Source of the DNA: an uncultured Myxococcales bacterium
Lineage (GTDB): Bacteria; Myxococcota_A; UBA9042
Assembly: GCA_903929795.1 (NCBI GenBank)
Contig: CAIYWC010000189.1
Coordinates: forward strand, 72,474-136,473
Length of the DNA: 64,000 nt
Direction of reading: 5' to 3'
Shown: positions 2,372 through 62,941 of the stretch, piece by piece
Layout of the letters: every line of letters begins with the position of its first letter
How positions within the stretch are numbered: position 1 is the stretch's first letter
Position numbers and translations under genes: made by a program
The notes under the pieces: generated by a model
Database searches by the model: none
Seen by the model: the letters and a program-made list of their open reading frames with translations, nothing else
What the model was told of the DNA's origin: nothing

Positions 2372-2387
2372 ACCCAATGCCAGTCAC

Positions 2388-2616
2388 TTGGCGTAAAACA
2401 CGATGAAATCGCTGCGCATTGTGGCGATCAGATTTCGGAACGCTCACGTCTGTCGGAACACTCGCCGGGGAAAAACGGCGACGCGATCCGGCCGGCTCAT
2501 GGCGCGCCTTGCGGACTTCCGTCCGCTCTTGGCGGACCTGCGGTCCGTGGCGCGCCCGTCCGGGCGCGAAATGGCTGCAACTAGCTGTTTGTCTGATGAT
2601 TTGGCTAATTGATCGG
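2388..2616 (+). repeat. Copy A of a roughly 230-bp structured intergenic repeat (three consecutive GC-rich hairpins); candidate sRNA, 3'-UTR or REP/MITE-like element
   Basis: Collinear with 10518..10748 at about 75-80% identity. Shared blocks: TTGGCGyAAA..ATGAAAT, GATTTCGGAACGCTCACGTC, TTGCGGACTTmCGTCCGCTCTTkGCGGACCTGCGGTCCG, GCGCCCGTCyGGGCGCG, ...GATCGG. Hairpins at 2511-2526, 2533-2547 and 2552-2567. It starts 16 nt after the stop of the plus-strand gene and fills the convergent gap. Confidence 0.6.
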
Positions 2617-2630
2617 CACAGGGGCCAGAC

Positions 2631-5600
2631 CTACCAGCCGCTCACCGGGACGCCGGAGACGACGCCGTTGCTGTCGTCGCCAAAGCACTGGACGGCCTTG
2701 CTTGTCAGCACGCCGCACACGACGTTTTCGCCCGCGCCGACCGAGAGCCACTTGCTGCCGGCGGGCGGCGTCGACGAGCCGGACGCGGTCGTGGTCCAGC
2801 AGGCCAGCGTGTTGTCTGCCTGGACGGCGCACGCCATGCTGCCCGCTGCAATGCCGATAAAGCTGCCGGTGGCGGGCGCCTTGGACACCGCGAACACCGA
2901 GTCGTCGCCCCAGCACGTGATGCCGCCGCCGGACTTGCGGATGCCGCACGTAAAGTTGTCGCCAGCGCTGATTTGGCTGAACGTCGCGCCGCCGGGCACC
3001 GTGGTCTGGCCGTATGTGTTCGTGCCCCAGCAGGCGACGGTGCCGTCCGCGCGCAACGCGCAGCTATGGTTTTGGCCGCAGCTGACCTGGACGAACGCGC
3101 CGGTGGGCGTACCGGTTGTCTGCGCGGAGCCGCTGTAATTCCAGCACTGCAGCGTGCCGTCGGTCTTGACCACGCAGGCGTGCGGTTTGCCGACGGAGAC
3201 CTGGGCGATGCCCGTTTGCGTCGACGTCAGCGCGGTCGGCGTGTTGGCGCCCCAGCACTGCATCTGGTTGCTGGCGTTCACGACACACGCGAAATAGTAG
3301 CCGGCGGAGACCTGGGTGAACGTGCCGGTCGGCGGCGTGGCGGCGCTGCCCCAGGCCAGCAGCTTGCCGGCGGCGTTCAGGCCCTCGGCGTAGGTGCTGC
3401 CGGGGTCGGCGAACGGCAAGGTCGCGCATGTTTGCGTGTGCGTGCAGCCGCTCGCGGGCACGCAGGCGTCGGTGGTGCAGGCGTTGCCGTCGTCGCAGCT
3501 CAGGGTCGTGCCCTTGCACGCGCCGGCGGTGCAGACGTCACCGCTGGTGCATGCGCTGCCGTCGCTGCACACGAGCGCGTTGTTGGCATGGCTGCAGCCG
3601 CTCGCGGGCACACAGCTGTCGGTGGTGCAGACGTTGGCATCATCGCAGCTGAGCGTTGCGCCGCTCTTGCAGGTGCCTGACGTGCACGAGTCGCCGCTGG
3701 TGCAGGCGTTGCCGTCGCTACACGCGCCGGTCGTGGGCGCGTGCGTGCAGCCGCTCGCGGACGCGCAGGCGTCGGCCGTGCAGGCGTTGCCGTCATCGCA
3801 GCTCACTGCCATGCCGACGCACGTGCCGGTGGCGCAGCTGTCGCCGGTCGTGCAGGCGTTGCCGTCGTTGCACGCGCTGGTCGTCGGGACGTGGTTGCAG
3901 CCGCTGCCGGGCACGCAGCTGTCGGTCGTGCAGGCGTTGCCGTCATCGCACAAGCCGTCGTCGGTCAGGCCATTACAGTCGTTGTCCACGCCGTCGCAGA
4001 TTTCGATGGCGCCGGGGTGAATCGCGGCGTTGCCGTCGTTGCAATCCAGCTTGTTGGTCACAAAAGTCGCCACCGGCGTGCAGCTCTGGACAAAGACCAG
4101 CGGGTTGCCGTAGCCATCGCCGTCGCCGTCGGCGTAGTAGAACGTGCCGGCGCCGTTGTCGATCTGCCCGTCGCAGTTGTCGTCCACGCCATTGCAGACC
4201 TCCGTGGCGCCCGGGTGGATCGCGCCGTTGGCATCGTTGCAGTCGCCGGGCACGGTCGCGCTCCACAGGCCGCTGCCGGCGCACAGGCACTTGACCTGAA
4301 TCAGCGCGTTGCCATAGCCGTCCGCGTCGCCGTCGTAGAAGAAGTTTGTGCAGGTGTCCAGGTTCGGCGGATCGGTGATCCCGTCGCAGTTGTCATCGAT
4401 TCCGTTGCAGATTTCCTTGGCTCCGGGGTGCACGTTCGGGTTCGTGTCGTCGCAGTCGGTGGCGTCCAGCGTGTGGTAGATCGGGTCGGCGGCGCAGGCG
4501 CACTTCACGTCCTTGCCGCCGTAGCCGTCGCCGTCCGCGTCGGGGTGAAAGCTGCTGCAGCCCTGCGCGCCCAGCTCATCGGTCTGGCCGTTGCAGTTGT
4601 CATCGATCTGGTTGCAGATTTCGGTCGCGCCGGGGTGGACAGCGCTCGACGCATCGTTGCAGTCGCCGCCGATGGTCACTGTGTGGACCGCGTCGGCCGC
4701 GCATAGGCAGGCCATGTCCGTGCCGCCGTAGCCGTCCTTGTCCTTGTCCGCGTAGAAATCCGTGCAGTCGACCGGCGGGCCGTCGTCCGTCAGACCGTTG
4801 CAGTTGTCGTCGATGTTATTGCACAGCTCCGGCGCGCCTGGGTGGATGCTCGCGGCAGCGTCGTTGCAGTCGCCGCCCTTGCTGGCGGTGTGACTCGCGT
4901 CCGCGACGCACAAGCAGACGCCCGCGCCGATGCCGTAGCCGTCGCCGTCGCCGTCGACATACCAGAGCGTGCAGCCCACGCCGGCGCCTTCGTCCGTCTG
5001 GCCGTTGCAGTTGTCGTCCACGCCGTTGCCGCAGATTTCCTGGGCGTTGGGGTGCACGCTGGCGTTCTTGTCGTCGCAGTCGCCGGCCTTGCTGGCGGTG
5101 TACGCGCCTTCGGGCCCGCACGCGCATTGGCTGGCGCCGGTGCCGTAGCCGTCGCCGTCCGCGTCCAGGTAGAACGCCGTGCAGCCCGGCCCGCCGATGC
5201 CGACGTCGGTGGTGCCATCGCAGTCGTCATCGACGCCGTTGCCGCAGATCTCGGGCTGGCCCGGATGGACGGCGGCGCTGGCGTCGTTGCAGTCGCCGCC
5301 ACCGAACGGGCAGACCTTGGGCTTGCCGACAACCGTCGCCGTCGCGGCGCACCAGCCGTCGCCGTCGCCATCGCAGCCTTCGTCCGTCACGCCATTGCAG
5401 TTGTCGTCGGCATCGTTGCACAGCTCTGGCGCGCCGGGGTAGACAGCGGCGTTGTTGTCGTCGCAATCCGTGCCGCTGGCGGACAGACCGGTGCCCGCGG
5501 CGCTGCACAAGCAGACCGGGCTGCCGGCGCCAAAGCCGTCGCCGTCCTTGTCCGGGTAAAACGGCGTGCAGCCCAGGGCGTTGGCGCCGTCCGTGATGCC

Positions 5601-6350
5601 GTCGCAGTTGTCGTCCACGCCGTTGCAGGCCTCCGTGGTGGCGCTGGGCGCGTCGCAGGCCGACAGACCGCTGGCCAGGCACGTGCGCACGCCCGGGCAG
5701 GTGCCCAGCGCGTTCTTGTTGCTGCACGGCGTCTTCGCACCGTCGGCGATGGCCTGCTGCGAACACGGGCACACGCCATTCTTGCGCAGGCACTGCTTGC
5801 TGGCCGCGGGTCCGCCGCTACCTTCCGCGTCGGCGCAGGCGTAGCCGGTGGGGCAATCGGCGTCCGCCTTGCAGCCGCTGCCGCAAAAGCTGCCGCTGGC
5901 GCCGTAGGCGATGCAGACCGCCGCGAGGTTGAGCTTCTGGCACTCGCTGTCCAGCCCGCATGGCCGGCAGAGCGCGGGCGGGCCATCGTCGACGGGCGCC
6001 GTCACATCCACAGCGGCGTCCGCAGCGGCATCCGGCGCCTCATCGCTGTCCCCGGTCGCCGTCGCGTCGCTGCCATCCGGGACTGCGGCATCCGCGGCGG
6101 GGACGTCGGCCGCGGTATCGGCGATCTCGCTGGCTGCATCCGGCACCGCATCGCCTTTGCCGGCGGCGTCTGCAGCCGCATCGGCGGGCTTGCCGCTGTC
6201 ATACGCCGCGACGTCGCCCTTGTTCACAAAACCAAGCTCGTCGCCAAAAACATCGTCGCTTGGCGCGTCGGCAATCGGCGTGCCACAGCTGGCGAACAGC
6301 ATCAGGAGCAAAAATCGCAGCGCAACGGCGCGACACAGCAGGGATTTCAC
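2631..6350 (-). CDS. Giant secreted lipoprotein (1239 aa) built from about 9 DGDGYG...C..DC.D.N..V.PGA.E.CNG.DDNC.G.TDEG repeats (putative metal-binding motif), about 6 Myxococcus cysteine-rich repeats (CDDGNACTTD.C....GC) and C-terminal RCC1-like propeller repeats (..CWG..)
   Basis: GTG start at 6350 with AGGAG 5 nt upstream. Signal peptide plus lipobox is MKSLLCRAVALRFLLLMLFASC|G. Repeat units were read directly from the translation. RCC1-like blades are QCWGANTP, LQCWNYSG, VACWGTNTYGQ, ITCWGDDS, LACWTTT and VQCFGDDS. Confidence 0.85.
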   Translation of the reverse strand: MKSLLCRAVALRFLLLMLFASCGTPIADAPSDDVFGDELGFVNKGDVAAYDSGKPADAAADAAGKGDAVPDAASEIADTAADVPAADAAVPDGSDATATGDSDEAPDAAADAAVDVTAPVDDGPPALCRPCGLDSECQKLNLAAVCIAYGASGSFCGSGCKADADCPTGYACADAEGSGGPAASKQCLRKNGVCPCSQQAIADGAKTPCSNKNALGTCPGVRTCLASGLSACDAPSATTEACNGVDDNCDGITDGANALGCTPFYPDKDGDGFGAGSPVCLCSAAGTGLSASGTDCDDNNAAVYPGAPELCNDADDNCNGVTDEGCDGDGDGWCAATATVVGKPKVCPFGGGDCNDASAAVHPGQPEICGNGVDDDCDGTTDVGIGGPGCTAFYLDADGDGYGTGASQCACGPEGAYTASKAGDCDDKNASVHPNAQEICGNGVDDNCNGQTDEGAGVGCTLWYVDGDGDGYGIGAGVCLCVADASHTASKGGDCNDAAASIHPGAPELCNNIDDNCNGLTDDGPPVDCTDFYADKDKDGYGGTDMACLCAADAVHTVTIGGDCNDASSAVHPGATEICNQIDDNCNGQTDELGAQGCSSFHPDADGDGYGGKDVKCACAADPIYHTLDATDCDDTNPNVHPGAKEICNGIDDNCDGITDPPNLDTCTNFFYDGDADGYGNALIQVKCLCAGSGLWSATVPGDCNDANGAIHPGATEVCNGVDDNCDGQIDNGAGTFYYADGDGDGYGNPLVFVQSCTPVATFVTNKLDCNDGNAAIHPGAIEICDGVDNDCNGLTDDGLCDDGNACTTDSCVPGSGCNHVPTTSACNDGNACTTGDSCATGTCVGMAVSCDDGNACTADACASASGCTHAPTTGACSDGNACTSGDSCTSGTCKSGATLSCDDANVCTTDSCVPASGCSHANNALVCSDGSACTSGDVCTAGACKGTTLSCDDGNACTTDACVPASGCTHTQTCATLPFADPGSTYAEGLNAAGKLLAWGSAATPPTGTFTQVSAGYYFACVVNASNQMQCWGANTPTALTSTQTGIAQVSVGKPHACVVKTDGTLQCWNYSGSAQTTGTPTGAFVQVSCGQNHSCALRADGTVACWGTNTYGQTTVPGGATFSQISAGDNFTCGIRKSGGGITCWGDDSVFAVSKAPATGSFIGIAAGSMACAVQADNTLACWTTTASGSSTPPAGSKWLSVGAGENVVCGVLTSKAVQCFGDDSNGVVSGVPVSGW

Positions 6351-9467: not shown

Positions 9468-10211
9468 ATGTACTTGCGTATTTCGGTCGTCGGCATCACG
9501 GCAAGCGTCCTGCTGGGCGGCGGCTGTAGCGCCACGGTGGGCGGCGGCGGCGCGATCGTCGCCAAGGACGCGAGCGGCGACAGCGGCACGAGCCCCAGCG
9601 ACACGTACGCAGCGCCCAAAGGCGACAGCACCGGCAGCGACGCCACGGCCAAGGACGCCGACAGCGCGGATTCCGGGGGCATGAGCGCCCTGCTCGGCTG
9701 CTTGCAGGCCCAATGCGCGAGCCAAATGACGGCGTGCCAAAACAGCGCGGTCTGCGGCACTGCGCTGGCGTGCATCTACGCGTGCCCGGTCGCCGACAAC
9801 GTCTGCCCCAACACGTGCATGGATCCGCTCAAGAGCGACCTCGGCGCGCTGGCGGCCATCGACGCCGTCAGCAAGTGCGAGCAGGCCAACTGCGAAACGA
9901 CCTCGCTGCCCGCCAACACGTGCGGCAACGGCAAGTGCGAGGGCAGCGAGAGCACGTGGTGCTCGCTGGACTGCGACAGCACCATCAAGAGCCTGGCCTA
10001 CTGCAGCGAGGGCAAGTGCACGGCGACGGCGGACGCGTGCATCCTCGACGCCGACTGCAACACCGCCATGAACTGCGTGATGGAATGCACCGACCCGAGC
10101 TGCTGGGGCAATTGCCCGCCCAGCGCCAGTGCAAGCCTCGCGTTGTACAACGCCATGTGGAACTGCACGCAGTCGCTCTGCACGCTCTACCTGCCCGCGG
10201 GTTCGCCATGA
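9468..10211 (+). CDS. Cys-rich secreted lipoprotein (hypothetical; about 30 Cys in 247 aa)
   Basis: ATG 9468 preceded by GAGGAA. Signal peptide MYLRISVVGITASVLLGGGC|SA. The stop overlaps the next start (ATGA). Confidence 0.7.
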   Translation: MYLRISVVGITASVLLGGGCSATVGGGGAIVAKDASGDSGTSPSDTYAAPKGDSTGSDATAKDADSADSGGMSALLGCLQAQCASQMTACQNSAVCGTALACIYACPVADNVCPNTCMDPLKSDLGALAAIDAVSKCEQANCETTSLPANTCGNGKCEGSESTWCSLDCDSTIKSLAYCSEGKCTATADACILDADCNTAMNCVMECTDPSCWGNCPPSASASLALYNAMWNCTQSLCTLYLPAGSP

Positions 10212-10501
10212 AGGACGCCGCTGCCAACGCTTGCCGCGCGCCGAGGCTGGTGGTGCCGGTCATCAACCGCAACAAGTGCGAAGGCAAGGAAGATTGCGTG
10301 CGCGTCTGCCCCCACGACGTGTTCACCATGGCGACCCTGACGGAGCGGGACAAGGCGACGCTGTCGCTCATCGGCCGCCTGCGCGCGCGTGTCCACGGCA
10401 GCCGTCAGGCTTTTCTGGTGGATGTGGACGCCTGCCACGCGTGCGGACTGTGCGTGACGTCGTGTCCGGAAGGCGCGATTCGCTTGGTGAAAGTGCCGTA
10501 G
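10208..10501 (+). CDS. 4Fe-4S dicluster ferredoxin (about 97 aa)
   Basis: Two CxxCxxCxxxCP motifs (CEGKEDCVRVCP and CHACGLCVTSCP). ATG at 10208 overlaps the upstream stop 10209-10211. Confidence 0.8.
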   Translation: MKDAAANACRAPRLVVPVINRNKCEGKEDCVRVCPHDVFTMATLTERDKATLSLIGRLRARVHGSRQAFLVDVDACHACGLCVTSCPEGAIRLVKVP

Positions 10502-10517
10502 CTGCGACGCCCGCCAG

Positions 10518-10748
10518 TTGGCGCAAACAGCATGAAATTGTTGTGCATGATGCGGATTTGATTTCGGAACGCTCACGTCCGATGGCGCGCTCGCAGAGAC
10601 AAACGACGGCGCGATTCGCAAGGCTCGGGGCGCGCGGTGCGGACTTACGTCCGCTCTTTGCGGACCTGCGGTCCGAGGCGGTGCGCCCGTCTGGGCGCGG
10701 ACCGGTTGCAAGCGGCGAGTGATTCGAGTGAATCGCCGCACGGATCGG
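10518..10748 (+). repeat. Copy B of the roughly 230-bp structured repeat (see 2388..2616)
   Basis: Begins TTGGCGCAAACAGCATGAAAT 16 nt after the ferredoxin stop. Hairpins at 10639-10654 (GCGGACTTACGTCCGC), 10661-10675 (CGGACCTGCGGTCCG) and 10683-10698 (GCGCCCGTCTGGGCGC). The stems are conserved and the loops differ from copy A. The ATGAAAT-initiated frame stops after 9 codons here, whereas copy A runs 69 codons, so the element is not coding. Confidence 0.6.
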
Positions 10749-10762
10749 CATTGACCTGAGCG

Positions 10763-10918
10763 GCTATTCGCGTTCCAAGTGTTCGCGCGGCGGGATGCCG
10801 TCTGGTCTTTGCTAGCGCGGGCCCGCTATTCGCGTTCCAAGTGTTCGCGCGGCGGGATGCCGTCTGGTCTTTGCTAGCGCGGGCCCGCTATTCGCGTTCC
10901 AAGTGTTCGCGCGGCGGG
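10763..10918. repeat. Tandem direct repeat, 62-bp unit x 2.5 (GCTATTCGCGTTCCAAGTGTTCGCGCGGCGGGATGCCGTCTGGTCTTTGCTAGCGCGGGCCC)
   Basis: Exact copies begin at 10763, 10825 and 10887. The third copy is truncated 3 nt before the OmpA-family stop codon (10922-10924). Confidence 0.7.
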
Positions 10919-10921
10919 CCC

Positions 10922-12034
10922 TTACTTATCCGGCGGCAGGAAGTTGAACTCGACGCGGCGATTCTTCTCGTACGCCGCCTTGTTCTTGGCCGGATCAAGC
11001 GGCCGGTCCGGCCCGAAGCCCACGGGCACCAGCCGGCTGCGGCCAATGCCCCGTTCCACCAGCGCCGCCACCACGGAGTTGGCGCGAGCCTGCGACAACT
11101 TCTTGTTCTTCTTGGCGTTTCCGGTCGAATCCGTGTGACCTTCCACCTGCACGCGGACTTCGCTCTTGTCCTTGAGCGCCGCCGTGCATTCGTCCAGGAT
11201 CTTCATGCTCACTTCGCCAACGATCGTCGCCTTGTTCACCGCGAACTGGATCTGCTTCTTGAACACGATCTTGTCGTTCTCGACCTCGATCGTGTCGTAC
11301 TTCTTGGGCTCCGGCGGCGGCGGCGGCAGCTCGTCCGGGCAGCCGTCTTCGTCGTCCAGCCCGTTGAACGTCTCCGGCTTGTCCGGGCATTTGTCCAGGT
11401 GCTGCGGGTAGTCGATGATGCCGTCGCCATCGTTGTCGACGTCCGGGCAGCCGTCCTGGTCCTCGTAGCCGTCCTTGTCTTCCGCGTAGTTGGGGCACTT
11501 GTCCTTGACGTCGAGGATGCCGTCGTTGTCGTTGTCCGGATCCGGGCAGCCATCCTCGTCCAAAAAGCCGTCCTTGTCCTCGGGCTGGTCGGGGCAGCGG
11601 TCGAACTGGTCCTTGATGCCGTCGTTGTCGCGGTCGTATTCCGGGCAGCCGTCGTCGTCTTCGTCGTTGTCGTAGTCTTCCGGATCGTCAGGGCATTTGT
11701 CGTCCGCGTCGCAGATCCGGTCGCCGTCGCGGTCCGGGCAGCAGCCTTTTTGGTCCTTGACCGCAGCCGCCTTCTCCGTGTGTTCCTTGGCGATGTTCAG
11801 GTTATGCCCGGCGCTCAGCATGTCGCCGTAGCTCGACTCCAAATTGGCAAAATCGAGAAACGCTTCCGCCAGCGCGAGGTCCTTGGGCGCACAATAATAC
11901 GCCGGCACTTTGACCTGACGGATCGTCTCGCTCAGCTTGGCGGATTCTTCCTGGACTTCGCTGCCAGTGGCGCAGGCGGTCGCCAGCAGGCAAACCAGCA
12001 CGCAAAACACAATGCGGTGGAGGCGCATGCTCAT
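10922..12034 (-). CDS. OmpA-family lipoprotein with thrombospondin type-3 Ca-binding repeats (D.D.DG..D..D.CPD)
   Basis: Lipobox LLATAC. About 8 TSP3-like Asp-rich repeats. C-terminal OmpA domain ...VEGHTDSTGNAKKNKKLSQARANSVVAALVERG...NRRVEF. Confidence 0.9.
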   Translation of the reverse strand: MSMRLHRIVFCVLVCLLATACATGSEVQEESAKLSETIRQVKVPAYYCAPKDLALAEAFLDFANLESSYGDMLSAGHNLNIAKEHTEKAAAVKDQKGCCPDRDGDRICDADDKCPDDPEDYDNDEDDDGCPEYDRDNDGIKDQFDRCPDQPEDKDGFLDEDGCPDPDNDNDGILDVKDKCPNYAEDKDGYEDQDGCPDVDNDGDGIIDYPQHLDKCPDKPETFNGLDDEDGCPDELPPPPPEPKKYDTIEVENDKIVFKKQIQFAVNKATIVGEVSMKILDECTAALKDKSEVRVQVEGHTDSTGNAKKNKKLSQARANSVVAALVERGIGRSRLVPVGFGPDRPLDPAKNKAAYEKNRRVEFNFLPPDK

Positions 12035-25087: not shown

Positions 25088-25164
25088 GCGTCCTGTCGGC
25101 CACGCGGCCGCGGCGCATGGTAAGTCGGCGATCGCGCTCGGGCAAGGCGATCGGCATGTTTTGT

Positions 25165-26664
25165 CAGGGCGATCGCAAGCTCCCGAACCCCTCGCAAAAT
25201 TGACGAAACCGCTCGCGCCTGATCTGCTGCATCACCACGGACTCGTGATCCGCGGTGATCATCATGAACGACCTCGACGGATATCGGCAACTTTACAGGC
25301 TTTCTGCGCAGATCCCCGACTGGCGGAGCGATCTCGGCAAGCTGCACAGGCTGACCGAAGTTCTCTTCATCATGGTGGTGGCGCTCATCGCCGGCGCGCA
25401 AGACTGCGAGGACATCCACGGTTTCGGCGACGAGAACGAACACTGGCTGCGGCAGCTCCTGACGCTCAAGCACGGAATCCCGCATCACGACATGTACTTG
25501 CGGACGCTGGCCGCAGTGCCGGCGGAGCAGTTCGAGGCGCTCGTGCGGGCGTGGACGGCCGCGCTGCGCGAGCCTGACGCGCTGAAGATCGACGGCCATC
25601 AGGTGGCTTTCGACGGCCAATCGCTGCGGGCAAGCGTGGATCGCTCGCTTGGCTCACTGCCGGTGCACATGGTTTCGGCATACCTGATCGAGGCTGGCTT
25701 CACTTTGGGCTCGAAGCGTGTGGACGAGAAATCCAACGAAATCATGGCAATTCCGGACCTGATGCGTTCGCTGAACCTGCGCGGCGCGACGGTGACCATC
25801 GATGCTATGGGCTGTCAGCGCGAGATTGCGGCGACTGCGCGGGAGGTGGGCGCGCACTACCAGCTGCAGGTCAAGGAGAACCAGCCGACGCTGCTGCAAA
25901 ACATCAAGACTTCCATGGTGGAAGCGACGCGGCGGCGACGTCCGGGTGAGGCGCCAGCCAAGCTGGAGCGGCACAAGGACGTCGACAAGGGGCACGGCAG
26001 GATCGAGACGCGCGCCTGCATTTTGTCCCGTGATCTCAGTGGTATCGAGAAACGCGACGACTGGCGCGACCTCTCAGGCATCGCCAGCGTGATGCGCGAG
26101 CGGACGGACGCCATCTCCGGCAAAACGTCACAGGAAATAGGCTATTACATCGTGAGTGATCCCTCAGCTACCGCAGCCGACGTGGCACGGCTCGCGCGGG
26201 GCCACTGGGGCATCGAGAACGGCCTGCACTGGTCGCTGGACGTCGTGTGGGGCTCGGACGCGCACGCGATCCGCGACCGCAATGCGGCGGAAAACATGGC
26301 GAGGCTGCGGCGGTTTTGCGCCGGCATGGTCAAGCAAAGCGTGGGATGGGGGATGAGCGGCAAGCGCGTGCGCAAGCTCGCCGGCTGGAATCCGAACAAC
26401 ATCCTGCGCGTCTTGGCCGGCGAGGTCATCGCCAAGAAACGAACCAAGGTCGCGCCGGTGAAGTACCGCAAGGCGCAGGAGGCGGCCAAGGCTGTCGCGA
26501 AGAAAAAGTAGCGACAGAAAAATCAGCCGGCATCGAGCGTGGACGGCAACCCGTCACGTCCGCTCGGGATTCGCCGGTGCGTCAAGAGCGGTCGACGCGT
26601 GGCGAAGGTTTGGAGGGACGGGCGACGTCAGGGCTGCGGGCGGGTCGAGCTTGCGACGGCCCTG
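25165..26664 (+). mobile_element. Complete ISAs1-family insertion sequence (1500 bp) with 18-bp imperfect terminal inverted repeats and a 10-bp target-site duplication CATGTTTTGT
   Basis: Left inverted repeat CAGGGCGATCGCAAGCTC (25165-25182). The right inverted repeat reverse-complements to CAGGGCCGTCGCAAGCTC (26647-26664), a 16/18 match. Direct repeats CATGTTTTGT at 25155-25164 and 26665-26674. One intact transposase ORF inside. Confidence 0.8.
25264..26511 (+). CDS. ISAs1-family (H-repeat-associated) DDE transposase
   Basis: Aligns along its length with E. coli YhhI/H-repeat protein: GAQDCEDIHGFG, SNEIMAIPDLM, TIDAMGCQREIA and HWGIENGLHWSLDVV. Confidence 0.9.
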   Translation: MNDLDGYRQLYRLSAQIPDWRSDLGKLHRLTEVLFIMVVALIAGAQDCEDIHGFGDENEHWLRQLLTLKHGIPHHDMYLRTLAAVPAEQFEALVRAWTAALREPDALKIDGHQVAFDGQSLRASVDRSLGSLPVHMVSAYLIEAGFTLGSKRVDEKSNEIMAIPDLMRSLNLRGATVTIDAMGCQREIAATAREVGAHYQLQVKENQPTLLQNIKTSMVEATRRRRPGEAPAKLERHKDVDKGHGRIETRACILSRDLSGIEKRDDWRDLSGIASVMRERTDAISGKTSQEIGYYIVSDPSATAADVARLARGHWGIENGLHWSLDVVWGSDAHAIRDRNAAENMARLRRFCAGMVKQSVGWGMSGKRVRKLAGWNPNNILRVLAGEVIAKKRTKVAPVKYRKAQEAAKAVAKKK

Positions 26665-27024
26665 CATGTTTTGTGGTTGATCAGACGCGGTTCGGCCTTC
26701 GCGCCGGGCCTCCACGCGGCCCGACAAAAGCCTCCCCCACTGGCGCCTGGCAAGCGCCAGACGCACCACCACCAAAGCGGCCCCGCGGCCTTGCGGCTGC
26801 GTCCGCCCCTCCGTTGTCAGCTGCCGGCTTCGCGCTGGCAACTGCCCGGAAGCCAGGTTGTGGGCCCGCGCACCATCGCCGCCCGTACGCGCGGTGGGTC
26901 CGTGGACAGGAGGCCCAGCTCGCCCCCCAGAACAGTATTCGCTCGGCGCTGGATTCTGCCGCGGACTCGAGCCAAGAAAAGTTCGCGTTCCGCGCATGTT
27001 CGCGTCGGAACAAGACGGTCCCAG

Positions 27025-57299: not shown

Positions 57300-57989
57300 A
57301 TGAAGCCCCTGCCGCATAACTTGTTCTTCGCACATATCAACCGTGTTTCCAGAACGTTGCCTGTTCCCGTCTCCGCCAGAGGCCTTGGTCATCAGCGCCT
57401 GAACTGGCCGGACTTGGTCGGTCGGTTAGTCGAGATCGTCGGCGGTCCACGGTCACTGCGGCTGGCGTGGCTGGCGCAGCTGACAACGCAGGTTCAGGCG
57501 GCGGGCGACATCGCGGTGTGGCTCCAAACTACCGAAAGTACGCCATTTCCTCCTGATTTGCTGCGCGCGGGGATCGCGCTGGATCGCCTGCCGGTGCTAC
57601 GTCTCGCCGACTTTCCGGCGCAGTTGCGGGCAGCGGATGTGCTGCTGCGATCGGGCGCGTTTGGCCTGTGCGCGATCGACGCTACGGCGGCGAGCCAGCG
57701 CGCCTTGGATACCTCGCGGTCGCTGGACAGCGCGCTGGGACGGCTGCTGGGACTGTGCCAAAAGCACGCGTCCGCACTGGTATTTTTGACGCCCGAAACG
57801 CCTAATCTGGCCATTCAGCAAGAAAACGCAGGATTTTTGCAGACTTCGCTGATTTCTCTCCGCCTGACGGCAGCACGCGATCGCGAGGTGTCGCGGCGGG
57901 TGCGGCTGGAGGTGAAAAAAGACAAGCGGCGCGGACCAGCGACGCTGCGGTCGGAAGTCAACGGAGGGCCCGATGGCCTTGAATTCTGA
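57300..57989 (+). CDS. imuA: ImuA-like (SulA/RecA-fold) translesion-synthesis accessory protein
   Basis: Assigned mainly from its position as first gene of the LexA-box/imuB/dnaE2 cassette and its size of about 230 aa. A RecA-like remnant is present. Confidence 0.65.
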   Translation: MKPLPHNLFFAHINRVSRTLPVPVSARGLGHQRLNWPDLVGRLVEIVGGPRSLRLAWLAQLTTQVQAAGDIAVWLQTTESTPFPPDLLRAGIALDRLPVLRLADFPAQLRAADVLLRSGAFGLCAIDATAASQRALDTSRSLDSALGRLLGLCQKHASALVFLTPETPNLAIQQENAGFLQTSLISLRLTAARDREVSRRVRLEVKKDKRRGPATLRSEVNGGPDGLEF

Positions 57990-59550
57990 GGACAAACGTC
58001 TGGCATGCGTCGACATTCCCGCGCTGCCGCTGCAGTGCCTGGTGCGGCGCGAACCGGCGCTGGCGACGCTGCCGGCGGTGATTGTCGACGAGCTGCATCC
58101 GCAAGGGCGGGTGCTGTGGACCAACCGCGCGGCGCGGCTCGCGGGCGTGCGGGCGGGCGCGCGCTACGGTCACGCGCTGAGCCTGTGTGCGCAACTGCGC
58201 GCAGGGCTCGTGCCGGACGCGGAACAACAGGCGGCAATTACTGAAATTGCTGAACTTTTGCGCACCTTTACTCCGCTGGTTGAGCCCGCGCGCCAGGAGC
58301 CAGGCGTGTTCTGGCTGGACGCCAATGGCCTCTCGCGCTTTTATGCCGACTTGCCGCTGCCGGACATCCACGCGCGCTGGAGCGAGGAAATTCGCCAGAA
58401 ATTGCGCGCTGTGGGATGGCACGCCGCAGTGGTGCTGGGTTTTGACCGGTTGGCGACCTACGCGATTGCCCGGCATTTTCACGGCGTGCGGGTGCTCGGC
58501 GATCCGGCACAGGAGGCCCACGCCTGCGCGCGCGTGAAGCTGGCGAGCCTGGGCGCGACCTGGGGCATCGCGCCGAACGTGCGCGATGATCTGGAGCGGC
58601 TGGGCGTCGCGACGTTGGGTGACCTGGCTGCGCTGCCAGAGACCGCGCTGCGCGAGCGCCTGGGGCTGCAGGTCGCGCTGCTGCGGCGGCGGCTGGCGCA
58701 CGACGTGCCGATGCCGCTGGCGCCCGAGCTGCCGCTGCCAGAGCCGGTGGCCGCGCGCGACTTCGAGCCGCCGGATAACAACGCAGAACGCCTGCTGTTT
58801 GCCGCCAAGGGCCTGCTTGGGCAGTTGCTGCCGCTGCTGGTGGCGCGCCGCCAGGCGGTGGCCACGCTGGAGGTGCTGCTGGTGCTCGATCACGCGCCGA
58901 GCCAGCTGCTGCCGCTGCAGCCCGCCGAGCCTACCCTCCAGGAGCCGCAGCTGCTGGATCTGGTGCGCCTGGCGCTCGATCGCACACCGCTCCCGGCGGC
59001 CGTCCAGACGCTGCGCCTCGCACTGCACGGCGTCCCGGCGACGGCGGGGCAACTGGCGCTGTGGCAGCTGCAGGGCCAGCGCGACCCGCAGGCGGCGGCG
59101 CTGGCGCTGGCACGGCTGCGCGCGCTTTTTGGTGAGGACGCGGTAGTGGTGGCGACGCCGCGGTCAGGCTGGCTGCCGGAGGCGCAGTTTACCTGGCAGC
59201 CGCTGCGCAAGTTGTTGATTCACAAGGCGCCCGCCGTGGAGGAACCGGCCAATGTCATCCACCTGCCGCAGCAGCCGCCGGTGCGCATGGTGCGTCGGCT
59301 GCTGAGCCAGCCCGTGCGCCTGCCGCCGCGACCGGCAGATGGTCGGCCGTGGCGTCTCGCGCCGTATTCTCCTGAAACTGTTGTGCATTTTGACGGGCCT
59401 TACCGCCTCGCCGGCGGCTGGTGGCGCACCACCGACCAAACCGACCGCTGCCGCGACTACGGCTACGCCACGACGGACCGCGGCACAGTGCTCTGGGTCT
59501 TTTGCGAACCAGCACGCAACCGCTGGTTCTGCCATGGATTTGTCGAATGA
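57973..59550 (+). CDS. imuB: ImuB, a Y-family DNA polymerase-like protein (catalytically inactive type)
   Basis: N-terminal UmuC-like region LACVDIPALPLQ...LWTNRAARLAGVRAGARYGHALSLCAQL and HhH region LGVATLGDLAALPETAL. Overlaps imuA by 17 nt and dnaE2 by 4 nt. Confidence 0.85.
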   Translation: MALNSEDKRLACVDIPALPLQCLVRREPALATLPAVIVDELHPQGRVLWTNRAARLAGVRAGARYGHALSLCAQLRAGLVPDAEQQAAITEIAELLRTFTPLVEPARQEPGVFWLDANGLSRFYADLPLPDIHARWSEEIRQKLRAVGWHAAVVLGFDRLATYAIARHFHGVRVLGDPAQEAHACARVKLASLGATWGIAPNVRDDLERLGVATLGDLAALPETALRERLGLQVALLRRRLAHDVPMPLAPELPLPEPVAARDFEPPDNNAERLLFAAKGLLGQLLPLLVARRQAVATLEVLLVLDHAPSQLLPLQPAEPTLQEPQLLDLVRLALDRTPLPAAVQTLRLALHGVPATAGQLALWQLQGQRDPQAAALALARLRALFGEDAVVVATPRSGWLPEAQFTWQPLRKLLIHKAPAVEEPANVIHLPQQPPVRMVRRLLSQPVRLPPRPADGRPWRLAPYSPETVVHFDGPYRLAGGWWRTTDQTDRCRDYGYATTDRGTVLWVFCEPARNRWFCHGFVE

Positions 59551-62500
59551 CGCCGCCCTATGTGCCGCTGTGGGTCAAGACGCATTTCAGCTTTCTGGAA
59601 GGCGCCTCGCGGCCAGATGAGCTCGTCGAGCGCGCACATGCGCTGGGCCTGCCGGCGCTGGCGGTGACGGATCGCGACGGCGTGCCGGGCATCGTGCGCG
59701 CGCACGAGGCGGCAAAAGACCTGAATCTGAAACTGCTTTTTGGCTCCCAGCTGACGGTGGCCGACGCGCTGCCCGGGCGGCGACAGAGCACCGCCGCGAC
59801 GCTCCTGACCCCGGAAGACGTGGCGACCGTCCAACCGATGACGCCGGTGCTGCTGGCGATGAACCGCGCGGGTTATGCCAACCTGTGCCGTCTGGCGACG
59901 CTGGGGCGGCGGCGGTGCCAAAAAGGCGTGGCGCTCAACACCTGGCAGGAGCTTGCCGCGCACGCGCAGGGGCTCATCGTGCTGCTGCACCAGCCGCCGG
60001 ACGACCTGCACGCGCCCTGGCTGGCGGACATCGCGGCGGCGTTTGGCGATCGCGCGTATGGGCTGTGCGCGCGCCACGGCGAGGAGGCGGACAAGCCACG
60101 CGAACGGCAACTGCGTAAACTCATGGCCCATTACGGCTGGCGCGGCGTGGCGGGGCGCGAGGTGCTGTACCACGACGCGACGCGGCGGCGGCTGCAGGAC
60201 GTGCTGACCTGCATCCGGCTGGGCCTGACGCTGGACAGCGCGGGCCAGCGCCTCAAGCCGAACGCGGCGCACGACCTGCCGACGCCGATCGACTTTGCAC
60301 AGCTGTTTGCCGACCAGCCCGACTGGCTGCAGCAGACGCTGGAAGTCGCTGATCGCTGTACCTTTTCTCTCAAGGAGCTGCGCTACGTCTACCCGCTGGC
60401 GCGGCTGCCGGATGGAACGACGACGGCGCAGCACTTTGACCGGCTGACCTGGGCGGGCGCGGCGTGGCGCTATCCGCAGGGCGTGCCGGACGACGTCCGC
60501 GCGCAGCTGGCCAAGGAGCTGGCGCTGATCCACCAGCTGGATTACGCCGGCTACTTTTTGACCATGTGGGAGATCGTGCAGTTCTGCAACGCTCAAGGCA
60601 TTCTTTGTCAAGGCCGTGGATCGGCTGCGAATTCCACGGTCTGCTATGTGCTGGGCATCACGGCGATCGATCCTGTCCGGATGGGCCTGCTGTTTGAGCG
60701 CTTCTTGTCGCTGGAGCGCGCAGAGCCGCCAGACATCGATCTGGACATCGAGCATGAGCGGCGCGAGGAGGTGATCCAGCACGTCTACGGCCGCTACGAT
60801 CCGCTGCATCCGGCGGCCAAAAATGCCGACGATCCGGCAGCTTGTGTGCAAACCGGGCGGAGTCACGCGGCAATGGTCTGCAACGTCATCCGCTTTCGCG
60901 GCAAGTCGGCGCTGCGCGAGGTCGGCAAGGTGCTGGGCATTCCGGAGACGGATTTGGACCGCGCGTCGCGCTTTGTCTCGTCGTGGGGCGAGGACATCGA
61001 CGCGGCGCAACTGCAAACGGCGGGGTTTGCCCTGGAGTCGCAGTCGCACCGGCTCCTGCTGGAGTTTGCCAATGCAATTCAGGACTTTCCGCGGCATCTG
61101 GGCATCCATCCCGGCGGTTTTCTCTTGGGCCACGAGCCGATCGACACCCTGGTGCCGATTGAAAACGCCACGATGGAGGCGCGCACGGTCATCCAGTGGG
61201 ACAAAAATGACGTGGAGGCGCTGGGGCTGTTCAAGGTCGACCTCCTGGGCCTGGGGATGCTGAGCCAGGTGCACCGCTGTCTGGATTTACTCAAGCTCAC
61301 CAAGGGGTTGACGCTGACGATGGCGACCGTTCCGGCGGAGGACCCGGCGACGTACCAGATGATCAGCCGCGGCGACACGGTCGGCGTGTTCCAAATCGAG
61401 AGCCGCGCGCAGATGGCGATGCTGCCGCGCCTGCAGCCGCGGACGTTCTACGACCTGGTGGTGGAGGTGGCGATCGTGCGCCCGGGGCCGATTACCGGCG
61501 GCATGGTGCATCCGTACCTGCGGCGGCGCCAGGGCAAGGAACCTGTTGAATATCCGCACGAATGCCTGCGACCGGTGCTGGCCAAGACGCTCGGTGTGCC
61601 GCTGTTTCAGGAGCAGGTTATGCGGCTGGCGATGGTCGCCGCGGACTACACGCCGGGCGAGGCGGACCAGCTGCGGCGCGACATGGCGGCGTGGAAGCGG
61701 TCGGGCGCGATGGAAAAGCACCACGAGAAGCTGACGACGCGGATGGTGCAAAAGGGCATCGCACTGGAGTTTGCCGAGCGAGTTTTCCAGCAAATTCGCG
61801 GCTTTGGCGAGTACGGTTTTCCGGAAAGCCACGCCGCGTCGTTCGCGCTGATCTCCTACGTGACGGCGTGGCTGAAGTGCCACCACCCGGCGGAATTCAC
61901 CTGCGCGCTGCTCAATGCCTGGCCGATGGGCTTCTATTCGCCCGCAACGCTGGTCGAGGACGCCAAGCGCCACGGGCTCCGCATTTTGCCGATCGACGTC
62001 CAGCGTTCGACCTGGGAATGCGCAATGGAGCGCGGCGCGGTGCGGATGGGCGTGAAATTCGTACATGGTCTCAGCGTATTGCACCGCGCGCGACTGGAGA
62101 TGGCGCCGCCGCCATACCTCAACCTGGACGACTTTGTGCGGCGCACGCGGCTGGACAAGCGGGCGCTCGACGCGCTGGCCGAGGTAGGCGCGCTGGACAG
62201 CCTGAGCGTGGACCGGCGTCAGGCGCTGTGGCAGGTCCGCGCGCTGGCGCATCGCACGCGCGAGCCGCTGCTGTTGCCGCAGGATGAGACACTGCCGCTG
62301 TTTGCCGCGCTGGGTCTGGGCGGCACGATCGGCTGGGATTATCGCCGCAGCGGGCTGTCGACCCGCGGCCACCCACTGACGCCGCTGCGACCCGCGCTCG
62401 CGGAACGACGCCTGCCAACCGCCTGCGAAATCAACCAGATGCGCGGCGGCAAGCGCGTGCGATTTGTCGGCCTGGTGATCTGCCGTCAGAGCCCGGGAAC

Positions 62501-62732
62501 CGCAAGCGGCGTGACGTTTTTCACGCTTGAGGACGAGACCGGGTTTTGCAATCTGGTGGTCTGGAAGGACATCATGGCGCGTTTCCGCGTTATCGCCCGT
62601 ACCGCGCAACTGCTCGGCGTCACGGGCAAAATCCAAGCCGAAGACGGCGTGGTCCACCTGATCGCCGAGACGCTCTGGACGCCCGAACTCAGCCAGCCGG
62701 TGCCACTGCCCGCAAGTCGGGATTTTCATTAG
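59547..62732 (+). CDS. dnaE2: Error-prone DNA polymerase III alpha paralogue DnaE2 (ImuC)
   Basis: PHP domain start YVPLWVKTHFSFLEGAS, the pol III alpha catalytic region, and an OB-fold C-terminus. 1061 aa. Confidence 0.92.
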   Translation: MTPPYVPLWVKTHFSFLEGASRPDELVERAHALGLPALAVTDRDGVPGIVRAHEAAKDLNLKLLFGSQLTVADALPGRRQSTAATLLTPEDVATVQPMTPVLLAMNRAGYANLCRLATLGRRRCQKGVALNTWQELAAHAQGLIVLLHQPPDDLHAPWLADIAAAFGDRAYGLCARHGEEADKPRERQLRKLMAHYGWRGVAGREVLYHDATRRRLQDVLTCIRLGLTLDSAGQRLKPNAAHDLPTPIDFAQLFADQPDWLQQTLEVADRCTFSLKELRYVYPLARLPDGTTTAQHFDRLTWAGAAWRYPQGVPDDVRAQLAKELALIHQLDYAGYFLTMWEIVQFCNAQGILCQGRGSAANSTVCYVLGITAIDPVRMGLLFERFLSLERAEPPDIDLDIEHERREEVIQHVYGRYDPLHPAAKNADDPAACVQTGRSHAAMVCNVIRFRGKSALREVGKVLGIPETDLDRASRFVSSWGEDIDAAQLQTAGFALESQSHRLLLEFANAIQDFPRHLGIHPGGFLLGHEPIDTLVPIENATMEARTVIQWDKNDVEALGLFKVDLLGLGMLSQVHRCLDLLKLTKGLTLTMATVPAEDPATYQMISRGDTVGVFQIESRAQMAMLPRLQPRTFYDLVVEVAIVRPGPITGGMVHPYLRRRQGKEPVEYPHECLRPVLAKTLGVPLFQEQVMRLAMVAADYTPGEADQLRRDMAAWKRSGAMEKHHEKLTTRMVQKGIALEFAERVFQQIRGFGEYGFPESHAASFALISYVTAWLKCHHPAEFTCALLNAWPMGFYSPATLVEDAKRHGLRILPIDVQRSTWECAMERGAVRMGVKFVHGLSVLHRARLEMAPPPYLNLDDFVRRTRLDKRALDALAEVGALDSLSVDRRQALWQVRALAHRTREPLLLPQDETLPLFAALGLGGTIGWDYRRSGLSTRGHPLTPLRPALAERRLPTACEINQMRGGKRVRFVGLVICRQSPGTASGVTFFTLEDETGFCNLVVWKDIMARFRVIARTAQLLGVTGKIQAEDGVVHLIAETLWTPELSQPVPLPASRDFH

Positions 62733-62865: not shown

Positions 62866-62941
62866 GGTCGGGGAGACAGGATTCGAACCTGCGACATCCT
62901 GCTCCCAAAGCAGGCGCGCTACCGGACTGCGCTACTCCCCG
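62866..62941 (-). tRNA. tRNA-Pro (anticodon UGG)
   Basis: Reverse complement reads CGGGGAG-TA-GCGC-AGTCCGGTA-GCGC-G-CCTGC-TTTGGGA-GCAGG-...GGTTCGAATCC...-CTCCCCG-ACC. It has a 7-bp acceptor stem, D and T arms, and anticodon-loop TTTGGGA giving UGG. CCA is not encoded. Confidence 0.85.

Follow-up and report, generated by a model that had tools for sequence, protein, structure and literature searches.

A 64,000-nt stretch of DNA from an uncultured Myxococcales bacterium (contig CAIYWC010000189.1, positions 72,474–136,473 of the forward strand; hereafter the window, whose own numbering is used throughout) carries, behind two plus-strand genes, what looks like the same structured sequence of some 230 bp, which raises the question of what kind of element has been repeated there. 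An original prediction made from the letters alone had offered a wide choice, namely a small RNA (sRNA) or 3' untranslated region (UTR) element, a REP/BIME-like terminator or transposition target, or a miniature transposable element with inverted repeats (MITE). The answer that we consider best, and hold to be somewhat probable, is that both copies belong to a family of composite interspersed repeats, non-coding, non-autonomous and restricted to one lineage, of the BIME, BOX, NIME or MITE kind. We read the element as a non-autonomous composite repeat because it is multi-copy in at least four related genomes, is absent at orthologous sites, occurs in any type of intergenic gap, varies in its number of units and has left degenerate copies.

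Two copies, empty sites and a family

The two copies, A at 2375–2626 (252 nt) and B at 10509–10752 (~244 nt), both on the plus strand, are collinear, as had been proposed: BLASTN with copy A inside the window returned 10509–10711 at 77 % identity over 205 nt (E=1.9e-38), and copy B, delimited by BLASTN and by MAFFT alignment to copy A, scored 112.5 bits with a covariance model of the family. The spans first given, 2388–2616 and 10518–10748, thus marked the right loci but were too short, as the likeness of A and B starts at CAATGCC (2375) and GCCAGT (10513), respectively, and ends at GATCGGC (2617 and 10749); the likeness of copy A to a metagenomic relative, L015, likewise spans CAATGCC to GATCGGC. 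A distance of 16 nt from the preceding stop codon to each copy was arithmetically correct, yet it hinges on the chosen alignment start and, with a 3-nt indel between A and B inside those 16 nt, is no meaningful constant. Both copies do lie in convergent 3'/3' gaps, bounded by an upstream stop TAG at 2369–2371 and a minus-strand stop at 2631–2633 (CTA) for copy A, and by a TAG at 10499–10501 and the OmpA stop at 10922–10924 for copy B; copy B, however, does not fill its gap, since a 62-bp tandem repeat comes after it.

The decisive result came from orthologous sites with and without the element, where sequence comparison identifies copy A as an insertion. Copy A is preceded by a gene for a 360-aa protein, which NCBI, ENA and Logan contigs of the source organism contain at 100 % identity and which has orthologues at 81, 77, 75, 73 and 65 % identity. 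The 77 % orthologue (L073) has the same convergent neighbour, the C-terminus of that neighbour being ...GVPQSGW* there and ...GVPVSGW* in the window. Only 2 nt lie between the two stop codons of L073 (GGCTAG-CC-TCACC), compared with 259 nt in the window. According to gene tables, the corresponding gap is also 2 nt at the 81 % orthologue (locus P0126) and 115 nt at the 75 % orthologue, whilst the copy A element is present in all near-identical strains, whose upstream gene of 1083 nt shows 2 differences. The insertion may have left a 5-bp target-site duplication, AGACC, present at 2370–2374, where it overlaps the stop TAG 2369–2371, and again 257 nt further on at 2627–2631, where it overlaps the minus-strand stop CTA 2631–2633. 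Removing 2375–2631, that is the element and one AGACC, yields GGGCTAGACCTACCAGCC, with a 2-nt gap like that of L073; by rough estimate, the probability of such a duplication by chance is 0.03–0.06. Absence at orthologous sites was also seen at a second locus, as the copy that follows MetH in one metagenome-assembled genome (MAG) (L004, bin-1663) is missing after MetH orthologues of 89, 84 and 82 % identity (L066–L068), and at two of these three empty loci the next gene follows after just 10 and 18 nt. For copy B, a synteny comparison through its upstream ferredoxin returned only distant, non-syntenic homologues.

The empty orthologous site favours the repeat or MITE end of the choice originally offered. 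Possible marks of a MITE moved by a DDE-type transposase are the one duplication and weak terminal complementarity. In the latter, CAATGCCAGTCA at the 5' end is matched by TGCCGATCA, the reverse complement of the 3' end, at 7/9 to 9/11 positions in three members of the window subfamily, which is short enough for an RNA closing stem or for chance.

Further copies beyond the two in the window were found, as the original prediction had anticipated, chiefly by way of a 20-nt sequence, GATTTCGGAACGCTCACGTC (hereafter the box), which lies on the plus strand at 2431–2450 in copy A and at 10560–10579 in copy B with an exact match between the two. The window contains exactly these two matches (2431 and 10560) and no others on either strand with up to 3 mismatches, against 0.02 expected from shuffles. 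The central 18-mer of the box, scanned against one genome per species, gave 13 matches, of which seven were true and all in 'uncultured Myxococcales' MAGs (four in MJ-time_bin-1663, one in Ja1_bin-0143 and two in YR2_bin-0002); the remaining six were chance matches in coding sequence of unrelated phyla. A metagenome scan added five matches, namely L015 (the same as L019), L031, L036 and L016, the last identical to copy A. As each of these scans used a single pattern, most copies were ascertained through the box. The covariance model, built from ten copies, recovered two more that lack an exact box, at L011:3851-3957 (103 bits, box GATTTCGGAACGCGTCCGTC) and L013:33-140 (55 bits). The family thus comprises at least 12 distinct full-length core copies as well as two that are partial, distributed over metagenome contigs and three MAGs of uncultured Myxococcales, with six copies in the best-sampled MAG and two in ~70 kb of the source genome. 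In ~120 kb from similarly or more closely related relatives (L066–L070, L072 and L073) there was no copy. A phage or plasmid origin was rejected: plasmids gave no match, and in viral contigs 19 matches to a 16-mer were all unrelated coding sequence and the 5'-module pattern found none.

Several copies are decayed or rearranged. L012, a remnant found by the covariance model, has lost all but about 40 nt at its start; in L011b the third hairpin is a hybrid, with its 5' half from one variant of the alpha hairpin described below and its 3' half from another, and no longer pairs; and at L013:33-279 two copies stand tail to tail (convergent) with their hairpin stacks abutting, one far more diverged than the other (55 versus 103 bits). 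In addition, at the 73 % orthologue of the gene upstream of copy A (L072:2053-2242), the stop codon is followed by at least 190 nt of non-coding DNA without the 20-nt box. This stretch holds TTGCCGATT...CGCAA, which resembles the L036 5' module over 25 nt at 80 %, and a hairpin, TCGCCG[CAAG]CGGCGA, with the stem of the inner hairpin of copy A; it scored 5.6 bits with the covariance model and nothing with nhmmer, which is not significant, and we leave it unconfirmed, as possibly a relative, distant or decayed, that occupies the same site.

Modular architecture and predicted folding

As alignment and folding resolve it, the element is composite: a 5' module that varies is followed by a core hairpin, with the near-invariant box as its 5' arm, by one to four short GC hairpins and, in the window subfamily, a 3' module. 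The 5' module of that subfamily (CAATGCCAGTCACTTGGCG...ATGAAAT...; 2375–2430, plus strand) is common only to copies A and B and L015/L019, and RNAalifold on three sequences predicted two small hairpins in it (2377–2394 and 2399–2423, plus strand). It is not found in MAG copies, four of which instead have GCGCTTGTTG immediately 5' of the box. A CCAGT motif recurs in the 5' modules at a variable distance.

Conservation is strongest in the box, where identity between copies is 92 % as against 61 % outside it, with 10 of the 12 aligned copies having been ascertained by means of the box and the other two matching it at 17/20 and 15/20. The central 18-mer is exact in the copies found through it, and L003 and L010 have A as the last base of the box. 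Most of the box forms the 5' arm (2434–2450) of a long imperfect hairpin predicted at 2434–2492 on the plus strand from RNAalifold and pair counts, the 3' arm of which lies at 2477–2492. This core helix, which single-sequence folds reproduce, encloses an inner hairpin with an A-rich loop, TCGCCG[GGGAAAAA]CGGCGA. Its 3' arm (consensus ACGGCGGCGCGATCCGGA) is far more variable than the box arm and pairs with it partly through G-U. Across 12 copies 87.8 % of cells in the core helix are paired, compared with 33–51 % when the partner is slid; the changes are nearly all one-sided, from G-C to G-U, and covariation is therefore no proof of this helix. In sister strains (L075 and L076) a single-nucleotide polymorphism (SNP), A to G at 2481, restores a C-G core pair, matches the family consensus and raises the covariance model score from 102.4 to 107.7 bits.

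Beyond a GGCTCGGGGCGC spacer follows the hairpin stack. In copy A, hairpin alpha, GCGGAC[TTCC]GTCCGC (2511–2526, plus strand), is succeeded by a TCTTG linker, by hairpin beta, CGGACC[TGC]GGTCCG (2533–2547, plus strand), and by hairpin alpha', CGCGCCC[GTCC]GGGCGCG (2551–2568, plus strand). The copy B stack occupies 10639–10698 on the same strand, with alpha GCGGAC[TTAC]GTCCGC at 10639–10654, beta CGGACC[TGC]GGTCCG at 10661–10675 and alpha' GCGCCC[GTCT]GGGCGC at 10683–10698. The three GC hairpins with conserved stems that had been described are therefore present, the stems being identical or nearly so in A and B and the loops TTCC/TTAC, TGC/TGC and GTCC/GTCT. The order alpha, CTCTTG, beta, alpha' is found in copies A and B, L010, L011a, L011b and L013a, and the number of hairpins per copy ranges from 1 to 4.

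An earlier suggestion of selection on structure, for which a covariation check had been proposed, was borne out for the hairpin stems, with the core helix excepted. The alpha loop always reads C-TT[C/A]C-G, on six perfectly complementary stems (GCGGAC, GCGCCC, GCGCGC, GCGACC, GTGCGC and GCGCAC), and three alpha pairs show double changes in 12 cells. Similarly, the CCTGCGG centre of beta is kept on differing stems, such as CGCACC/GGTGCG in L011. Over all modelled helices 89.7 % of cells are paired, again with 33–51 % for slid controls. Identical alpha and beta sequences nevertheless recur across genomes, which suggests that a limited repertoire of units is involved, beyond free compensatory drift alone. 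In the 64-kb window and the other myxobacterial DNA examined, alpha-type hairpins are confined to elements and always have the element's orientation; as they are absent elsewhere, they are parts of the element and not generic terminators.

The 3' module holds a further hairpin, gamma, drawn by eye at 2582–2607 on the plus strand of copy A (TAGCTG...TGGCTA). Its stems differ yet pair in all three subfamily members by eye (UAGCUG/UGGCUA in A, GCGGCGA/UCGCCGC in B and UUGCUGAUU/AAUCGGCAA in L015), whereas RNAalifold drew another helix. Copy A then ends in a box, TGATCGGC (2610–2617, plus strand), that is 7/9 complementary to TGCCAGTCA at the 5' end. The equivalent segment of copy B (10712–10749, plus strand) comprises a gamma hairpin at 10712–10739, likewise by eye, and the end box GGATCGGC at 10742–10749. 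The complementarity of this end box to the 5' end could represent a closing stem or else a terminal inverted repeat, if a weak one. With regard to strand, the modelled helices contain 27 G-U pairs versus 7 A-C, and a three-sequence consensus fold reached -62.5 kcal/mol with 8 compensatory pairs on the plus strand, compared with -51.1 kcal/mol and 2 on the minus strand. Folding of the plus strand, as RNA or as single-stranded DNA (ssDNA), appears favoured, although this bias is only suggestive because the structure was derived on that strand.

Coding potential, regulatory signals and surroundings

The open reading frame (ORF) beginning at the ATG of the 5' module (2403–2612) runs for 69 codons in copy A and stops after 9 in copy B, and it had for this reason been judged non-coding. 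We concur, as a protein is excluded by a frame broken in B by a stop at codon 10, by indels of 1–3 nt and by the absence of the ATG block from MAG copies. Nor is the element a known RNA: at gathering thresholds, an Rfam 15 scan of the whole window returned only a tRNA (62868–62941), and scans of both copies at E ≤ 10 reached at best 11–17 bits against family thresholds of 48–100, with nothing relevant amongst them.

A search of both window copies for a sigma-70-type promoter detected none, and inspection by eye revealed no motif at a fixed distance upstream of the box in the family as a whole. Two sigma-54 (-24/-12) readings, TTGGCG...GCATG and TGGCGATCAGATTTCG, were rejected since, by eye, they have the wrong spacing or fail at the GC dinucleotide, and since other copies do not conserve the motif. 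A terminator function, which had also been proposed, found no support, for neither strand of the window copies has a T-run after any hairpin; sites with a hairpin and T-run numbered zero in 2300–2700, and in 10440–10960 they occurred only inside the neighbouring 62-bp tandem repeat. An attenuator-like alternative pairing is permitted in the window copies by the series GCGGAC/GTCCGC/GCGGAC/GTCCG, but the alpha and beta stems of other copies differ. A 5' leader or riboswitch of the downstream gene can be dismissed where that gene is convergent, as in copies A and B, L004 and L015, and a retron msr/msd likewise, there being no reverse transcriptase beside any copy and many copies per genome. An integron attC site was rejected as well. 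Such sites have an inverse core RYYYAAC and a core GTTRRRY at the ends of an imperfect palindrome, at the 3' ends of cassettes. Here, the 5' arm has GGAAC without the YYY run, the 3' arm is without GTT, and the flanking genes are of housekeeping type, not cassettes.

Those flanking genes are unrelated to each other, encoding a hypothetical protein, a ferredoxin, an acyl-CoA dehydrogenase, MetH, a radical SAM protein and NAD kinase. With orientation judged from codon-position GC and Pfam, a co-oriented gene lies upstream in 9 of the 12 copies, including both in the window. That the element might always sit 3' of a gene was, however, not upheld, as three copies (L010, L011a and L013a) stand head-to-head with a divergent gene, ~100–125 nt from its start, and four or five (L003, L007, L011a, L011b and L012) lie upstream of a co-oriented gene. 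Copies thus occupy convergent, tandem and divergent gaps, and with gap types and flanking genes both varying, the element is tied neither to 3' ends nor to any gene family. Tandem gaps, the only type informative on orientation, were co-oriented in 3/3 cases, too few for any conclusion.

Within the window, the mechanical ORFs upstream of both copies (869–2371 and 9713–10501) are over-extended; public gene calls for the same organism place a 360-aa hypothetical protein at 1289–2371 upstream of A and a 97-aa ferredoxin upstream of B. The gene convergent with copy A (2631–6350, minus strand) encodes a repeat protein of secreted type, 1239 aa long, in which MopE metal-binding motifs occur together with Dicty_CTDC and RCC1 repeats, and its coding DNA contains long internal direct repeats with a periodicity of ~207 nt. 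The 62-bp tandem repeat between copy B and the OmpA stop codon (10763–10919) comprises 2.5 units, the first two identical, each with a weak hairpin followed by a T-rich tail. In the gene tables of near-identical strains the gap between ferredoxin and OmpA is 358 nt rather than 420 nt, one 62-bp unit fewer, and the number of units therefore differs between strains.

Farther away, the window holds an apparently intact insertion sequence (IS) at 25155–26674, with a transposase ORF (25249–26511) bearing DDE_Tnp_1_assoc and DDE_Tnp_1 domains, 18-bp inverted repeats CAGGGCGATCGCAAGCTC at 25165–25182 and 26647–26664, and a 10-bp target duplication CATGTTTTGT at 25155–25164 and 26665–26674. The ends of our element were compared with the inverted repeat of this IS (25165–26664) and the likeness was unconvincing. 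At 57916–62732 (plus strand) two adjacent ORFs, one with an impB/mucB/samB-type (Y-family polymerase-like) domain and the other a DnaE-type polymerase III alpha subunit, resemble an imuB-dnaE2 mutagenesis cassette; the tRNA gene at 62868–62941 is on the minus strand.

Competing explanations and what the family may mean

The main rival, a paralogous family of small regulatory RNAs, possibly derived from 3' UTRs, in which the box would be a target-pairing or protein-binding region and the GC hairpins would confer stability and a 3' end, is in our judgement rather unlikely, even though several observations fit it. An invariant block amid sequence that is otherwise 61 % identical, conserved loops over covarying stems, the excess of G-U over A-C pairs, the better folding of the plus strand and the pair-restoring SNP of the sister strains would all be expected of such RNAs. 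Moreover, at least 34 nt separate the upstream stop from the box in every copy, leaving room for a promoter, and the three copies in divergent gaps could be transcribed only from a promoter of their own. Multi-copy sRNA families with an invariant block exist, as exemplified by Qrr1–5 of Vibrio and OmrA/B of enterobacteria, and these share with our element the several paralogues per genome, the exact block of ~20–30 nt in diverged sequence and hairpins kept in structure. In disagreement with this, however, neither a conserved promoter nor a conserved terminator accompanies the copies here, non-canonical promoters being possible; folding predicts a paired block, not a free one; loci are non-syntenic and positions are not conserved between relatives; and hairpin number varies from 1 to 4 alongside truncated, hybrid and tail-to-tail copies. 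The complement of the box is absent elsewhere in the window. A host-beneficial 3'-end element, acting as a bidirectional terminator or mRNA stabilizer and duplicated locally without being mobile or acting in trans, appears very unlikely: the co-oriented gene preceding both window copies and 9 of 12 in the family, together with very stable GC hairpins in convergent gaps, would suit it, but it leaves unexplained the missing T-runs, the copies in divergent promoter regions or upstream of co-oriented genes, and a conserved 85-nt core that a terminator would not need, and orthologous convergent gene pairs manage with a 2-nt gap.

Mobility itself could take a more specific form, in which an element of REP/REPIN type or derived from IS200/IS605 is moved as folded ssDNA by a tyrosine (HUH/Y1) transposase such as RAYT, and this version of the mobility step strikes us as quite doubtful. 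Recognition by hairpin shape together with loop and foot sequence would fit the conserved loops, the covarying stems and the imperfect core hairpin with its spacer, two of three copies have no target duplication, and the single orientation of the hairpins and the strand asymmetry would agree with folding of one DNA strand. The resemblance to BIME and REP sequences of enterobacteria and pseudomonads extends to short GC-rich palindromes in arrays with conserved linkers, extragenic and often between convergent genes, which are thought to fold in ssDNA or mRNA (PMC3184786, PMC3116915); REPINs, which go with RAYT transposases, are defined as inverted REP doublets, with an inverted repeat and spacer that form a long hairpin in ssDNA or mRNA, like the core here (PMC3116915). 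Nevertheless, the two arms of a REPIN are equally conserved REP copies, whereas only the 5' arm is conserved in our element, whose hairpins all point one way instead of alternating as BIME units do and are preceded by an 85-nt non-palindromic core with a one-sided invariant box. A GTAG-type 5' motif, which is a feature of REP sequences, is lacking, and the left ends share no conserved target tetranucleotide (ACC versus GGG). Among the ORFs scanned, which were part of those in the window and a few at other loci, none was a Y1 or RAYT gene. REP-style solitary units in alternating orientation were likewise not found in the DNA examined, and copy number is apparently low, tens at most as far as sampled, against hundreds.

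Several observations also weigh against the composite repeat that we prefer. The terminal inverted repeat is weak as judged from the three sequences (7/9 to 9/11), the DNA examined yielded neither an autonomous parent nor a transposase whose ends match, since the inverted repeats of the window's one IS are unrelated, and the 5-bp duplication is seen at one copy only, with no matching one at copy B or L015. Copy number looks modest, far below that of typical REP or BOX families. The conservation of the box, on which part of the case is built, is inflated because a search with the box itself supplied 10 of the 12 copies in the alignment. Finally, a near-invariant box arm opposite a drifting partner arm, and conserved loops on covarying stems, are a pattern met more typically in functional RNAs or in sites recognized by a protein than in parasites undergoing decay. 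These last features would be accommodated by a new class of multi-copy structured RNA or folded ssDNA with a dedicated protein partner, for which the box and the TTCC and CTGC loops would serve as recognition sites, and which would be kept by selection for a host or mobile-element function and not by copying alone. We deem this unlikely; were it so, the element might be an RNA that guides or scaffolds a recombinase, a regulator that works via the box, or a substrate of a mobilization system specific to these myxobacteria.

The composite repeat remains our preferred reading, and it would constitute a previously undescribed family of a familiar kind, in a class that holds BIME, BOX, NIME, Correia and ERIC; a limited full-text search of the literature surfaced no such repeat family for Myxococcota. 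Families of this kind are described as probably parasitic and as structured RNA that is co-transcribed (PMC3049150). A close parallel in organization is BOX of Streptococcus pneumoniae (boxA, a variable number of boxB, boxC), which is similarly composite and modular, with fixed end modules and variable middle units, and also non-coding, intergenic, strongly folded and lineage-restricted; here, the core is followed by 1–4 hairpins, and copy A, copy B and L015 have 5' and 3' modules in common. BOX elements, furthermore, have filled or empty orthologous sites and are co-transcribed with neighbouring genes (PMC3049150). The middle units differ, being 16-nt GC hairpins of two alternating types rather than the 45-bp boxB, and our host DNA, at 67 % GC, contrasts with the usual AT-richness of MITE-like repeats; copy number is apparently much lower, and no matching IS is known. 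Given the GC content and the phylum of the host, homology to boxA, boxB or boxC is implausible. Like MITEs such as Correia, ERIC and RUP, the element falls in the range of 100–300 bp, lacks coding capacity and is polymorphic in its insertion, with what may be a target-site duplication, with short terminal complementarity and with effects to be expected when transcribed (PMC3049150). In contrast, its terminal inverted repeat is 7/9 to 9/11, against 26 bp in Correia, its duplication was seen once, and covarying hairpins with conserved loops are not a MITE feature.

If the composite-repeat reading holds, the copies would have been spread by an enzyme acting in trans that recognizes either the 20-nt box or the core hairpin, together with the conserved hairpin loops. 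Such an enzyme might be a DDE transposase, of which the 5-bp duplication at one copy and the terminal complementarity, weak as it is, give a hint. It might also be a reader of folded ssDNA as for REP and IS200/IS605, and hints of this are the imperfection of the core hairpin, the bias towards a single strand and the loops that stay conserved while their stems covary. Where an element lies behind a gene, as both window copies do, it would be read through as a 3' UTR whose plus strand folds into a stable stack of hairpins, and this stack would be expected to slow 3' exonucleases and to impede transcription entering from either convergent gene. Co-transcription as a structured 3' UTR is probably what happens at these loci.

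Good descriptions of small interspersed repeats exist for enterobacteria, pseudomonads, neisseriae and streptococci, whereas the carriers here are uncultured freshwater myxobacteria, and copy A provides a clean example of an element inserted exactly between two convergent stop codons. The 20-nt box offers a searchable marker for tracking strains or lineages in lake metagenomes. Furthermore, the one-sided invariance and the conserved loops point to a specific recognition partner, and if that partner is a new mobilizing enzyme or RNA-binding system, then the repeat would be the handle by which to find it. Otherwise, the finding amounts to a new repeat family, and annotators should mask 2403–2612 instead of calling a 69-codon ORF there.

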